DNA of 64,000 nt. Origin: an uncultured Acidobacteriota bacterium (GTDB lineage: Bacteria; Acidobacteriota; Thermoanaerobaculia; Multivoradales; UBA5704). Of the stretch, positions 58,203 through 63,200 are shown piece by piece (positions within the stretch are counted from its first letter, which is position 1; the number at the start of each line of letters is the position of its first letter). A program made the translations under genes and the position numbers. The DNA is taken from NCBI GenBank assembly GCA_963770895.1, contig CAVYRF010000002.1, forward strand, positions 2,784,001-2,848,000, given 5' to 3'. The notes under the pieces are model-generated. The model was given only the letters and a program-made list of their open reading frames with translations. It had not been told where the DNA came from and searched no databases.

Positions 58203-59255
58203 ATGGGAGACACGAACGTGCGCAGGGCTTGCCTGCTTGTGCGAGGTGTGTGCGGTTGGCTGGTTGGAGTGGTCGGGTTGCTGGTGCTGGTGGGGTTGAG
58301 CAGCTCGGCGACCAGGTTGGAAGCGGCGCAGACGGGAGAGATCCGCGACTGCGCGCGGCTGTACGAAGGACGGACCTACGACGATGCGCGGCTGTGTTTT
58401 ACGGGCTACATCGCCGCGCATCCCAGCGACGCGGCGGCGGCGGCCAATCTGGGGCGCACCTACCTGGCGCAGCGCCAGGTGCCGCTGGCGCTCGACTGGC
58501 TGAAAAAGGCGGTGGCGCTGGACCCGCAGCGCTCGGACTATCACGACTGGCTGGGCCAGGCCTACGGCATTGCGGCCGAGCGCGGACCGGTCGTGCGGCA
58601 GTTCGGCCTGGCGGTCAAGGTGCGGCGGGAGTTCGAGCGCGCGGTGGCGCTGGATCCCGAAAACCTGGACGCCCGTGAAGACCTGATTCAGTTCCTCATC
58701 CAGGCGCCGACGTTCATCGGCGGCAGCTTCGAGCAGGCGCGCGCCCAGGCCGCGGAGCTGGCGCGCCGCGACCCGCTGCGCGGGCGCCTGGCCCGCGCCG
58801 AGATCGCCATGCGCCAGCTGCCGCCGCCGGCGGCGGAGCGCGAGGTGCAGGCGATGGCGGCGGACTTTCCCGGCGACGCGCGGCCGCGGCTGACCCTGGC
58901 CGACCTGTACGCCAAGACCGGCCGCGCCGACCAGGCGTTCGACGCCCTGGAGGCGGCGCTACGCATCGAGCCGATGAACGCCGACGCCCACTTTGCCTTC
59001 GCCCGCCTGGCCACTGCCTCGGGGCAGCGTCTGGACCGCGCCCAGGAGCTGCTGGGCGCCTACCTGGCGCACCTGCCGGCCGGCGACTGCGCCGATGAGG
59101 CCGACGCCCACTTCGAGCTGGCCAACCTGCTGCGCCGCAAGGGCGAGGTCGGCCGCGCCCGCGAGCAGCTGCAGGCCACGCTGCGCCTGGACCCCGGCCA
59201 GGGCGCCGCCCGCGAAGCCCTGCGCCGCCTGGACCGCACCGCCCCCGCACCGTAG
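58203..59255 (+). CDS. Secreted tetratricopeptide-repeat protein
   Basis: Signal-like N-terminus; TPR units 'KKAVALDP..SDYHDWLGQAY', 'FERAVALDP', 'ADAHFELA'. Confidence 0.88.
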   Translation: MGDTNVRRACLLVRGVCGWLVGVVGLLVLVGLSSSATRLEAAQTGEIRDCARLYEGRTYDDARLCFTGYIAAHPSDAAAAANLGRTYLAQRQVPLALDWLKKAVALDPQRSDYHDWLGQAYGIAAERGPVVRQFGLAVKVRREFERAVALDPENLDAREDLIQFLIQAPTFIGGSFEQARAQAAELARRDPLRGRLARAEIAMRQLPPPAAEREVQAMAADFPGDARPRLTLADLYAKTGRADQAFDALEAALRIEPMNADAHFAFARLATASGQRLDRAQELLGAYLAHLPAGDCADEADAHFELANLLRRKGEVGRAREQLQATLRLDPGQGAAREALRRLDRTAPAP

Positions 59256-59256
59256 T

Positions 59257-59300
59257 AACCGCCGGCCCGCCCGCCCTCAAGGGTGGCGGGCGCGGCGGTT
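59257..59300. terminator. GC-rich hairpin between the convergent TPR gene and the small peptide gene
   Basis: Stems AACCGCCG/CGGCGGTT, GCCCGCC/GGCGGGC and CCC/GGG around a TCAA loop; no long U-tract. Confidence 0.45.
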
Positions 59301-59323
59301 GACGTCAGCGTTTGCGCCTACAG

Positions 59324-59482
59324 CTAGGGCATCACATCTCTGCCGCAGGGCTCGCCCGACTTCTTGCAGTCGGGGAGCGTGGATCCGGTGAGGCCACCGG
59401 CAGCATGGCGCAGCTCGGCGCTCAGCAGAAGCAGCGTTTCCCGGCCAACCGTAAGGCGCTTGCAATTGCGGTTCGTACGCAT
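59324..59482 (-). CDS. 52-aa putative RiPP (lanthipeptide-like) precursor with a double-glycine leader
   Basis: Translated by hand: MRTNRNCKRLTVGRETLLLLSAELRHAAGG-LTGSTLPDCKKSGEPCGRDVMP*. RBS AAAGGTGG just upstream of the ATG. Absent from the ORF track (under 60 aa). Confidence 0.72.
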   Translation of the reverse strand: MRTNRNCKRLTVGRETLLLLSAELRHAAGGLTGSTLPDCKKSGEPCGRDVMP

Positions 59483-59720
59483 GGGTCCACCTTTCTCGCG
59501 GAGCGGGCATTGCCCGCGTTGCCGCGAGTATGCTTGTTCAATGCAGCCCTTGCTATAGGTCGCGCTGGTATCGCGGGGCCTGTGTGCCGATGATCAGGGC
59601 CGGTTCCTCGACGCGCTTTGAAAGACCCGAAAGGAGCGTGGGCAACCCTCTGCGCCGGGCCGCTTTCTGAGGGGCGGCGATTTCGGGTATGTTTACCGCC
59701 CTTGCGAGGGCGTGGCGCCT

Positions 59721-62700
59721 ATGTATAGTCCGATCCCCAAGATCCCTGACTTTCCGGCCATCGAGCGGTCGGTGCTGCGCTTCTGGGAAGAGCGCCAGAT
59801 CTGGCGCCAGCTGCGCGCGCGCAACGCCGGCGGCCGGCGCTGGTCGTTCCTGGACGGGCCGATCACCGCCAACAACCCGATGGGGGTCCACCACGCCTGG
59901 GGGCGCGCCTACAAGGACATGTTCCAGCGCTACCACGCGATGATGGGCTGCGATCAGCGGTACCAGAATGGTTTCGATTGCCAGGGGCTGTGGGTCGAAG
60001 TGGAAGTGGAAAAGGCGCTGGCCATCAGCGACCGGCGCCAGATCCTGCAGTACGGGATCGATCACTTTGTGCGCCGTTGCAAGGAGCGCGTGCTGACCTA
60101 TGCGGCGCGCCAGACCGAGCAGTCGATCCGTCTGGGCCACTGGTGCGATTGGGACGATCCGCGGACGCTGCGCGCGCTGTCCGAAGCGCTTGCCGACGGC
60201 CGCGAAGAGGTGACCGTGACGGTGCCCTCGGGCGAGCAGGTCACCGGTTCCCCCGAGCAGATCGTGGCGCGGCTGGGGTCGCCCGAATGGGGGGGCAGCT
60301 ACTTCACGCTGTCCGACGACAACAACTACACCATCTGGTCGTTCCTCAAGCGCTGCCACCAGGAGGGTTTCCTGTATCGCGGCACCGACGTGATGCCCTG
60401 GTGCGCGCGCTGCGGCACCGGCCTGTCGCAGATGGAGGTGGCCGAGGGGCGGCGGATCACCAGCCATGCCTCGGCGTTCGTGCGCTTCCCGCTGCGCGGC
60501 CGCGAGCGCGAGGCGCTGCTGGTGTGGACCACCACCCCCTGGACGCTGCCCGCCAACGTGGCGGTGGCGGTGAACCCAGAAATGACCTACCTCAAGGTGC
60601 GGCACGGCGACTGGGTGCTCTACCTGGGCAAGGACAACCTGGGGCGCGAGCGCCTGCAGCAGCTGGAGGCCGGCGGCCTGCGCGAATCGCACAAGCTGCA
60701 TTCGCTCAAGACGCTGCTCGAAGGCTCCGGCACCGTCGAGGTGCTGGGCGAGCTGCTGGGCGCGGACCTGGTGGGGCTGACCTACGACGGACCTTTTGAC
60801 GCGCTGCCGGCGCAGCAGCAGCCGGGTGGCCTCAACGCCTACGGTGCCGGTCCCGCCGAAGCGACCGCCGCCGCCAGCCATCGGGTGATCCCCTGGGGCG
60901 AGGTGAGCGGCGCCGAAGGCACCGGCCTGGTGCACATCGCGCCCGGCTGCGGCGCCGAGGACGCGGGGCTCGGCCGCGAGCACGATCTGCCGGTGATCGC
61001 GCCGCTTGCCGCCGACGGCACCTACCTGGAAGGGTTCGGCGACCTGTCGGGGCGGCCGGTGGCCGAGGTCGCCCCCGACATCCTCAAGGACCTCAAGGGG
61101 CGCGGCCTGCTGCTCGCCCGCGAAAGCTACCCGCACGTCTACCCGCACTGCTGGCGCTGCAAGCAGGAGCTGGTGTTCCGCCTGGTGGACGAGTGGTTCA
61201 TCGACATGTCGTGGCGCGACCGCATCCAGAAGGTGGTCGCCGGCGTGACCTGGATCCCGGCCGAGGGCGAGGCGCGCGAGCAGGACTGGCTGCGCAACAT
61301 GGGCGATTGGATGATCTCCAAGAAGCGCTTCTGGGGGCTCGCCCTGCCGATCTGGGTGTGCGGCGACTGCCAGGGCTTCGCCGTCGTCGGCAGCCGCGAA
61401 GAGCTGCGCAGCCTGGCGGTCGAGGGTTGGGAGGAGTTCGACGGCCACACCCCGCACCGCCCCTTCGTCGATCGCGTCAAGATCCGCTGCAGCGCCTGTG
61501 GCGGCGTCGCCAGCCGCGTCGAGGACGTCGGCAATCCCTGGCTGGACGCCGGCATCGTGCCGTTCAGCACCCTGCGCTACGACTCGGACCGCGAGTATTG
61601 GGCGCAGTGGTTCCCGGCGGATTTCATCGTCGAAAGCTTCCCCGGCCAGTTCCGCAACTGGTTCTACGCGCTGCTCGCGATGAGCACGATGATGGACGGC
61701 CGGTCGCCGTTCAAGGCCATGCTGGGCTATGCCTCGGTGCTGGACGCGCGCGGCCAGGAGATGCACAAGTCGGCTGGCAACGCGATCCTGTTCGACGACG
61801 CCGCCGAGGTGATCGGCGCCGAGCCGCTGCGCTATATGTATGCCGCCAAAAACCCGGTGCAGAACCTGTTCTTCCCCGACCTGGAAGACCGCGGCGACGC
61901 CGGCTCGCGGACGCTGGTCGAAGTGCGGCGGCGACTGCTGACGCTGTGGAACTGCTACAGCTTCTTTGTCACCTACGCCATGGTGGACGGATGGACGCCG
62001 GCGACCGCCGCCGCGGCTCCGCCCGCCGAGCTGGACCGCTGGATCCTGAGCCGCCTGCAGCGGCTGACCGCCGCGGCGCACCAGGCGTTCGGCGAGCTGG
62101 CGCTGTATCGCTTCATGGCGCAGGTCGAGCAGTTCGGCGACGAGCTGTCCAACTGGTACCTGCGGCGGTCGCGCCGCCGCTTCTGGGGGGCGGGCGTCGA
62201 CGCCGACAAGCAGGCCGCCTACCAGACCCTGTACGAAGTGCTGGTCACGCTGGTGCGGTTGCTGGCGCCGATCGTGCCCTTCCTGAGCGAGGAGATCTAT
62301 CGCAACCTGGTGGTGGCGGTGGCCGCGCCCGGCGCGGAGACTGCCGAATCGGTGCACCTGACCGCCTATCCGCAGGTGGACGCGGCGCGCATCGACCAGG
62401 AGCTGGAGCGCAAGTTCGACTGCGTGATCCGCGTGCGCGACCTGGCCCTGGCGTTGCGCGGCGAAGCCAAGGTCAAGGTGCGCCAGCCGCTCGGCCAGCT
62501 CATCGTGCGGCCGCGCGACGCCGCCGACCGCGCGGCGCTGGGCGAGGCCGGCCTGGTGCAGCAGATCCTGGACGAATGCAACATCAAGGGGCTGCAGCTG
62601 ATCGACGACGAGGCGACGCTGGTGAGCAGCAGCGTGCGGCCCAACTTCAAGGCGCTGGGTCCGCGCTACGGCCGCCAGATGAAGAAGATCGCGGAGGCAT

Positions 62701-63200
62701 TGTTGAAGGTCGACGCGCGCACGCTGGAAGAGGCGTTCGCGCGGGAGGGGCGCTATCGCTTCAGCCTGGAGGGTGCGGGGGACGGCGGCGCAGCCGAAGG
62801 CGACGTCGCGGGGGGGGCGGCGCCAGCCGTCGAGGTGCTGCCCGAGGACGTCGAGCTGGTGCGGTCCGGCCCCGCGCACCTGGTCTTCGCCTTCGACCAG
62901 GGGACCTTTGCCGCCCTGGACGTCACCGTGACCCCCGAGCTGGAGCGCGAGGGGATCGCGCGCGACTTCAACCGCCACGGCCAGGAGCAGCGCAAGGCGC
63001 TCGACCTGGACGTCGCCGACCGGGTGGTGGTGCGCTTTGCCGCCAGCGACCGGGTGCGCACCGCCGTCGCCGAGCACGAAGCCTATCTGCGCGACGAGCT
63101 GCTGGCCGACCGCATCGAAGCCGTCGCCACCCTGGAGGGTGGGGCGGCGGCCAAAATCGCCGGCGAAGCGGTGCTGCTGTCCATCCGCAAGAGCGCCTGA
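59721..63200 (+). CDS. ileS: Isoleucine-tRNA ligase, type 2 (IleRS2), with non-canonical GVHH and EMHKS motifs
   Basis: 'FLDGPITAN', 'GFDCQGL', 'WTTTPWTLPAN', 'GTGLVHIAP', 'YPHCWR', 'DWMISKKRFWG', 'LSNWYLRRSRRRFW'; IleRS2-type C-terminal tail 'PNFKALGPRYG', 'EGIARD'. Alternative GTG start at 59712. Confidence 0.93.
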   Translation: MYSPIPKIPDFPAIERSVLRFWEERQIWRQLRARNAGGRRWSFLDGPITANNPMGVHHAWGRAYKDMFQRYHAMMGCDQRYQNGFDCQGLWVEVEVEKALAISDRRQILQYGIDHFVRRCKERVLTYAARQTEQSIRLGHWCDWDDPRTLRALSEALADGREEVTVTVPSGEQVTGSPEQIVARLGSPEWGGSYFTLSDDNNYTIWSFLKRCHQEGFLYRGTDVMPWCARCGTGLSQMEVAEGRRITSHASAFVRFPLRGREREALLVWTTTPWTLPANVAVAVNPEMTYLKVRHGDWVLYLGKDNLGRERLQQLEAGGLRESHKLHSLKTLLEGSGTVEVLGELLGADLVGLTYDGPFDALPAQQQPGGLNAYGAGPAEATAAASHRVIPWGEVSGAEGTGLVHIAPGCGAEDAGLGREHDLPVIAPLAADGTYLEGFGDLSGRPVAEVAPDILKDLKGRGLLLARESYPHVYPHCWRCKQELVFRLVDEWFIDMSWRDRIQKVVAGVTWIPAEGEAREQDWLRNMGDWMISKKRFWGLALPIWVCGDCQGFAVVGSREELRSLAVEGWEEFDGHTPHRPFVDRVKIRCSACGGVASRVEDVGNPWLDAGIVPFSTLRYDSDREYWAQWFPADFIVESFPGQFRNWFYALLAMSTMMDGRSPFKAMLGYASVLDARGQEMHKSAGNAILFDDAAEVIGAEPLRYMYAAKNPVQNLFFPDLEDRGDAGSRTLVEVRRRLLTLWNCYSFFVTYAMVDGWTPATAAAAPPAELDRWILSRLQRLTAAAHQAFGELALYRFMAQVEQFGDELSNWYLRRSRRRFWGAGVDADKQAAYQTLYEVLVTLVRLLAPIVPFLSEEIYRNLVVAVAAPGAETAESVHLTAYPQVDAARIDQELERKFDCVIRVRDLALALRGEAKVKVRQPLGQLIVRPRDAADRAALGEAGLVQQILDECNIKGLQLIDDEATLVSSSVRPNFKALGPRYGRQMKKIAEALLKVDARTLEEAFAREGRYRFSLEGAGDGGAAEGDVAGGAAPAVEVLPEDVELVRSGPAHLVFAFDQGTFAALDVTVTPELEREGIARDFNRHGQEQRKALDLDVADRVVVRFAASDRVRTAVAEHEAYLRDELLADRIEAVATLEGGAAAKIAGEAVLLSIRKSA

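Follow-up and report, generated by a model that had tools for sequence, protein, structure and literature searches.

The precursor gene described here lies on the minus strand of a 64 kb window (the whole stretch of DNA analysed, G000:C2:2784001-2848000), which belongs to a genome, G000, of 8.16 Mb in 3 contigs with 70.7% G+C. A gap of 456 bp separates a TPR protein gene (58203..59255, plus strand) from ileS (59712..63200, plus strand), and positions 59324..59482 inside that gap encode a peptide of 52 residues, from an ATG start to a TAG stop that is included in the coordinates; a gene caller predicts it as well. A Shine-Dalgarno-like sequence, AAAGGTGG (59487..59494, minus strand), can be read 4 nt before the ATG. 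Residues 1-30 form a leader, MRTNRNCKRLTVGRETLLLLSAELRHAAGG (59393..59482, minus strand), and the 22 residues that follow form a core, LTGSTLPDCKKSGEPCGRDVMP (59327..59392, minus strand). The leader shows the pattern L10-x-V12-x-R14-x5-L20 (in full, L10-T-V12-G-R14-ETLLL-L20) and ends in G29-G30; the LxLx(K)x5L motif and the terminal Gly-Gly of class I leaders are both present, with V replacing the second L and R replacing the K of LxLxKx5L. In an alignment of 21 family members from G000 (alignment A1), E15, T16 and L17 are invariant, and L10, R14, L20, L24 and G30 are at least 90% conserved. The core holds two Cys and four Ser/Thr residues. Thr5-Cys9 and Ser12-Cys16 are both spaced i to i+4, with the Ser/Thr N-terminal of the Cys; the residues preceding the two Cys are Asp and Pro, and there is no Gly-Cys motif. 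An earlier note, made from the letters of the window, had pointed out this minus-strand ORF with its ribosome-binding site, a hairpin on either side, a leader ending in GG and two S/T-x3-C motifs in a 22-residue core, and all of these are borne out by the sequence, by folding and by a leader HMM.

The 5' hairpin (59495..59528, minus strand; -23.7 kcal/mol, z -4.4) stands directly upstream of the ribosome-binding site, and 1 of 200 shuffled sequences folds as well. The 3' hairpin (59257..59300; -39.9 kcal/mol, z -5.1), equalled by none of 200 shuffles, is common to the TPR gene on the plus strand and the peptide gene on the minus strand. It folds just as well on the plus strand, where it begins 2 nt beyond the TPR stop codon, and it is therefore a putative terminator common to both convergent genes, one that has no U-tract. 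A search of the whole source genome finds no recurrence of either hairpin or of the 456-bp intergenic region; the hairpins are thus not repeat elements. The ORF had also been credited with its own expression signals. A sigma-70-like promoter scan of the minus strand of the locus gives no site, and because of this the claim comes down to the ribosome-binding site and the terminator-like hairpin. Rfam models run on 58800-60200 at E<=10 give sub-threshold chance matches only, with no T-box or leader RNA before ileS. Contigs of soil DNA from two runs of another study carry the ORF unchanged; their sole difference is T>C at 59511, within the 5' hairpin, where it turns an A-U pair into G-U and the pairing is kept. 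The unchanged ORF shows presence in the population, not selection. In RNA run X8, two contigs cover 59714-59864 (identical, in ileS) and 59955-59998 (five differences); both stop short of the ORF, and they are uninformative on its transcription either way.

Curated models do not recognize the window peptide. Pfam and NCBIfam give no match even at E<=10, the class I lanthipeptide leader model NF038153 (lant_leader_L1a) neither reaches its curated cut-off of 22 bits nor matches at E<=10, and a homologue search with the ORF alone returns only the self-match among 5.8 billion proteins. Because NF038153 gives no match, membership of the ORF in a family rests on a family-specific HMM. A regular-expression scan of the six frames of G000, suggested in the earlier note, yields 23 matches, each a short frame with a Cys-containing tail, and a leader HMM was built from the leaders so matched and searched against 108,811 six-frame segments of the genome at E<=0.01. 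It finds 77 distinct frames, with the window ORF at rank ~20 and E 2.4e-9. A profile of the 21-member alignment A1 gives 91 matches. The copies lie on both strands of the three contigs (53, 23 and 1), and 15 of the 77 have another copy within 1.5 kb. Most are far from any enzyme that might act on them: for 69 of the 77, no LanM, LanB, LanC-like, C39, SPASM or GMC match comes within 10 kb, and the other 8 are closer to one. The proposal of a genome-dispersed precursor library, made when a single member was in view, thus holds for a genome with 77-91 copies; as a reading of the genomic data it is supported, with all genomic tests that the earlier note suggested in its favour. By the same sequence criteria the window ORF is a genuine stand-alone gene for a lanthipeptide-type precursor, not a chance ORF.

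Members of the family share an LxLx(R/K)x5L...GG leader followed by variable cores of Cys, Ser and Thr. For the 70 of 77 frames with an identifiable Met start, GGAG, GAGG or AGGA occurs at -18..-4 in 62, against 11% of random 15-mers; the ribosome-binding site of the window gene misses this strict motif and fits a looser set, as do 68 of the 70. Mean GC3 in the family is 0.83, and a 3' fold with z below -2 follows 26 of the 70 genes. Cores could be delimited in 61 members. Ser plus Thr equals or exceeds Cys in 60 of them, Cys-x3-Cys spacing is enriched (57 observed, 21.7 expected), and directly adjacent Cys are under-represented; in composition and spacing the family cores look like lanthipeptide cores. 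The window copy is a compositional outlier within this set. Its charged fraction of 0.26 is the highest of the 61 (median 0.08), and its two Cys are the lowest count (median 4), held in common with about five others. No lost Cys-rich tail is seen past its stop or in the other frames. Common k-mers upstream of family genes are generic GC-rich words only, and a sigma-54 -24/-12 motif precedes 2 of 70 genes, against 4% of random windows. Recurrent neighbours include sigma-54 activators, sensor kinases, TPR proteins, AMP-binding enzymes and ABC transporters, from which no conclusion is drawn because all belong to large paralogue families.

The lineage given for the window is consistent with its IleRS, which has 83% and 69% identity to Thermoanaerobaculia MAG proteins, the next closest coming from other Acidobacteriota. 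The A1 profile has matches in 25 of 41 related genomes (G000 included) and in 20 of the 24 belonging to the same family, mostly with 8-63 copies per genome; genomes from other families of the order have few or none. Among 2120 candidate public proteins, 783 match at E<=1e-3. Most are annotated as hypothetical, a few as natural product precursor, and one as "class I lanthipeptide [Thermoanaerobaculia bacterium]" (NCBI); PF28317 is annotated on a few of these public relatives. The site itself is variable. The closest relative that keeps the neighbourhood, G005 (ileS DNA 84% identical), has no family peptide between TPR and ileS; its gap of ~1.5 kb (L022:1-1500) holds a lipoprotein-like ORF of lower GC and a short ORF that appears, by eye, ribbon-helix-helix-like. 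In G025, from another family of the order, a peptide with a short two-Cys core, an SD motif and a hairpin of its own (L023:2156-2308, minus strand) is encoded in the same direction as ileS, ~160 nt ahead of it. A peptide is thus found beside ileS in 2 of the 5 genomes with the window's type of IleRS, an adjacency that may be chance or old linkage. Besides the window IleRS (59712-63200, plus strand; 1162 aa), no IleRS-like gene was found in G000, and a search with the N-terminal 200 residues of the window protein at E<=1e-40 succeeds in just 5 of the 41 related genomes. Given so patchy a distribution, the gene may have been acquired horizontally.

The earlier note stated that no gene for LanB, LanC, LanM, a SPASM protein or a C39 exporter lies in the window, and profile searches agree: LanB, LANC_like, DUF4135 (LanM), C39, SPASM and GMC models all give no match in the 64 kb. 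The genome search that it called for shows that LanB, LanC, LanM and C39-ABC genes are all present outside the window. There is one full-length LanB (G000:C2:5180053-5183583; L110:10053-13583, minus strand), of 1177 aa with Lant_dehydr_N and Lant_dehydr_C domains, ~2.3 Mb from the window gene, and beside it, convergent with it, a LanC of 536 aa (L110:8405-10012, plus strand). The neighbours of this pair are genes for RNase II, chorismate synthase, a secretion ATPase and peptidases, and no family peptide lies within 20 kb. G000 further contains a second, weak LanB-like gene, two LanM genes, two full C39+ABC exporters (L142:8256-10562, minus strand, and L143:5768-7978, plus strand) together with a third C39-ABC protein, and ~11 LanC-like matches, the closest being 123 kb from the window gene. 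These ~11 LanC-like genes without a dehydratase domain include G000:C2:3320488-3322883 (beside L020), C2:2707932-2709005, C1:1011767-1012966 and C1:1567258-1568097; several have a family peptide or a weak match to the leader (E 0.01-0.1) next to them, and the extra genes may be substrate-specific cyclases. Directly upstream of LanM no. 1 is a LanA of 82 aa of the mersacidin/lichenicidin type (L112:12215-12460, minus strand; TIGR03898, 70.8 bits), and a scan of G000 for this type of leader motif finds no other copy. LanM no. 2 lies 3.7 kb from a family member with 9 Cys (C2:4304002), with no other candidate LanA seen there; its cluster is flanked (L111:678-5899, minus strand) by two CHAT-domain proteins, one with TCAD7, and a lipase-like protein. 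GMC oxidoreductase matches at G000:C2:2151057-2151443 (2 kb from L004) and G000:C2:4968566-4968769 are each ~2 kb from a family peptide, and one of these two peptides has a GGGGVC stretch, an arrangement that recalls the thiazole-forming enzymes ThaO/TheO. A radical SAM/SPASM route was considered and set aside, as G000 has only 5 SPASM loci, one of them within 10 kb of a family member.

The cognate enzyme of the family is probably a class I LanB/LanC pair rather than a ProcM-like LanM, a preference that follows from the curated leader model, gene order in relatives and co-occurrence. Lanthipeptide leader HMMs had been proposed as a check: NF038153 matches 12 of the 21 G000 members tested weakly, every member tested falling below the curated cut-off or giving no match, and the window ORF gives none. 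When peptides of relatives that are adjacent to LanB are scored, 4 of 5 tested pass the same cut-off, at 23.0-40.3 bits. Of 19 LanB loci inspected, 5 have family peptides no more than ~6 kb from the LanB gene. The order is lanA-lanC-lanB at L116 and L138 and lanB-lanA-lanA-lanC-lanC at L141, while L115 has an array of six precursors; these four loci are all from other families of the order, and in the family to which G000 belongs 13 of 14 LanB loci are without a neighbouring peptide. LanB (E<=1e-60) is found in 24 of 25 peptide-positive genomes and 2 of 16 peptide-negative ones, and a LanM match in 18 of 25 and 3 of 16 respectively, counts that are descriptive only because the 41 genomes are related, often incomplete and not independent. 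No LanM match is found in G018 (37 peptides, 100% complete), G022 (33 peptides) or G008 (29 peptides). The earlier suggestion of a remote, promiscuous, prochlorosin-like synthetase therefore fits the dispersed architecture, but probably not the class of enzyme, for which LanB/LanC is likelier.

A model of residues 1-800 of the G000 LanB (alignment A2, 16 orthologues) in complex with the window peptide (alignment A1) scores 0.64, against 0.00 for the best of three controls. Among solved complexes 58 of 80 attain that mark, and among mismatched pairs 2 of 110, a calibration that holds only roughly here because the alignments were custom-made. At least 45% of contacts recur between runs, and with partner pLDDT at least 42 the peptide's own fold is uncertain. 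The confidently modelled contacts join peptide residues 7-25 to LanB 199-218, 275-292 and a few others, the tightest running between G13-L20 and LanB 213-218; all 16 orthologues keep V215 and A216, and conservation is at least 90% at H213 and L214. A conserved strand of LanB may therefore be the docking site of the window leader. A LanB-leader complex, NisB with NisA, has a solved structure, so the high score may reflect likeness to it rather than binding by the window copy. The arrangement predicted here resembles NisA-NisB in that a leader strand is paired with a conserved strand from the N-terminal region of LanB; the leader motif of NisA is FNLD, and that of the window peptide is RETL(L/x)xL instead.

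It would appear, on a balance that we judge moderately favourable, that the window gene encodes a stand-alone lanthipeptide precursor of a dispersed family, matured by a distant LanB/LanC pair and exported by a C39-ABC protein. The sole full-length LanB, ~2.3 Mb away, would bind the leader in the form of a beta-strand, glutamylate core Ser/Thr residues and then eliminate. The adjacent LanC, or one of the ~10 LanC-like paralogues, would add Cys9 and Cys16 to dehydrated Thr5 and Ser12, so that the window peptide would carry two small thioether rings, each i to i+4. Cleavage after Gly-Gly and export of a 22-residue peptide with seven charged residues would then fall to a C39-peptidase ABC exporter.

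Other readings of the same genome have to be set against this one. The same family might be matured by a class II LanM, or by LanM with a GMC oxidase as for ThaA/TheA, and G000 does offer two LanM genes, one of them with the 9-Cys family member as the only candidate LanA seen in its vicinity, as well as GMC genes ~2 kb from two family members; a LanM from Thermoanaerobaculia is described as acting on a precursor with a Cys-rich core (PMC13083261). We nevertheless hold this quite unlikely, since three genomes have 29-37 peptides without a LanM match while three genomes with LanM have no peptide, LanM no. 1 has a TIGR03898-type LanA of its own with a different leader, operons of relatives pair the family leader with LanB/LanC and pass the class I leader model there, and the window holds neither a LanM nor a GMC gene. 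The window copy might also be a decaying or silent paralogue, a member by descent that is no longer expressed or modified. Its outlier core, with two Cys and more charge than any other core of the family, its weaker SD motif, the lack of a promoter site, its absence from the syntenic site in G005 and its position below every curated model all speak for decay. Yet the frame is intact, all invariant leader positions and the GG are kept, the leader scores at rank ~20 of 77, about six of the 61 cores have just two Cys, the docking predicted by the complex model is confident, and there is no trace of a lost Cys-rich tail downstream or in other frames; we therefore regard decay as unlikely, if worth keeping in mind.

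A GG-leader peptide could also be exported by a C39-ABC protein without thioethers, as an unmodified or disulfide-bonded bacteriocin or signal. Two full C39-ABC exporters in G000, weak matches to GG-bacteriocin models and TIGR04149 in some relatives, and two Cys that could form one disulfide are compatible with such a peptide, but the leader family co-occurs with LanB/LanC and not merely with exporters, a Ser/Thr stands N-terminal of each Cys at ring-forming spacing, and SPASM loci number only five, one of them within 10 kb of a member; this strikes us as very unlikely. As for a chance ORF in a GC-rich intergenic region, the ORF is short, lacks a curated family match and is known from its sequence alone, and we consider chance so improbable as to be negligible against an HMM E-value of 2.4e-9, an invariant leader motif, a ribosome-binding site and a terminator-like hairpin. 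Maturation by the distant LanB/LanC pair remains the likeliest reading.

The molecule belongs to a known kind. The earlier note called leaders of this type typical of lanthipeptide precursors that end in GG and are cleaved by C39 peptidases, and such leaders are indeed described for class I LanAs: Walker et al. 2020 report LanAs of this class from Bacteroidetes with an LxLxKx5L leader, many of them Gly-Gly-ended, and a C39 protease in the cluster (PMC7268733). The window family is like these pinensin-type/NF038153 precursors in its L-x-L/V-x-R/K-x5-L leader, its Gly-Gly end and its cores of Ser, Thr and Cys, and the same C39 cleavage would be expected, going by that description (PMC7268733). 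It differs in lineage (Acidobacteriota rather than Bacteroidetes) and in having Arg (RETL) where they have Lys. Whereas pinensin-type genes form operons, the window gene is ~2.3 Mb from LanB/LanC on the same contig, with neither in the window. In architecture the closer parallel is with picocyanobacteria. Prochlorosin precursors are found far from their LanM (PMC7268733), and SyncM is described as able to modify up to 79 SyncA substrates (PMC9872173). As far as these sources describe them, the prochlorosins with ProcM and SyncA with SyncM share with the window family tens of precursors, a conserved leader, variable cores and many genes remote from the synthetase, but they are served by a class II LanM and have Nif11-type leaders, in contrast to the class I-type leader and co-occurring LanB/LanC seen here. 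No Nif11/NHLP-type leader model is among the NCBIfam and Pfam matches of the 21 G000 members. From Thermoanaerobaculia MAGs, class II lanthipeptides with a thiazole-forming GMC oxidase have been characterised (PMC13083261). Compared by the text description of that source, ThaA/ThaM/ThaO and TheA/TheM/TheO come from the same class and likewise pair an N-terminal leader with a Cys-rich core; their clusters are compact, with LanM and a GMC oxidase, whereas the window ORF has neither nearby and no Gly-Cys (PMC13083261).

What is new is the occurrence of tens of orphan class I-type precursors per genome together with enzymes in a housekeeping context. A search of one literature library, supplements apart, together with term look-ups in PMC12328550 and PMC7268733, turns up neither a class I library of dispersed genes nor any such library in Acidobacteriota, and within the same scope dispersed libraries with one promiscuous enzyme are otherwise known only for picocyanobacterial class II lanthipeptides. 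We tentatively propose, as a possibility held with less than even confidence, that in this family of Thermoanaerobaculia one housekeeping-embedded LanB/LanC pair matures a dispersed, quickly diverging library with as many as ~90 precursors per genome, that LanC paralogues and GMC oxidases add substrate-specific steps, and that the charged two-ring peptide of the window is functionally distinct, for example a signal rather than an antibiotic. If true, it would mark the first time that class I (Glu-tRNA-dependent) enzymes are seen to operate a natural combinatorial library, and a LanB/LanC pair that processes ~80 different cores would be a naturally promiscuous class I toolset. Because 69 of the 77 precursors are more than 10 kb from candidate enzymes, cluster-based genome mining would miss most of the family.

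The surroundings of the window gene hint at how the family has spread. The 3' end of the TPR gene of the window (59060-59266) is 78% identical to a 207-bp fragment at L113:8496-8704, which lies just 3' of, and convergent with, a family peptide gene (L113:8326-8493) in the same layout as in the window, and the two peptide genes themselves align at only ~55-60%. The duplicated TPR fragment, matching layout and diverged peptide genes suggest that segments were duplicated and that the peptide genes then diverged fast. A phage-type integrase (L126:4-1314, minus strand) lies 468 nt from a pair of family peptides at G000:C2:5269264-5269828. Duplicated permeases with MacB_PCD and FtsX domains form ~54 loci in G000, among them L119:1-2418 (G000:C2:76574-78994) and L120:4-2505 (C1:985610-988114), and they are found within 320 nt of 4 of the 70 family peptides, a weak enrichment that could reflect export or immunity.
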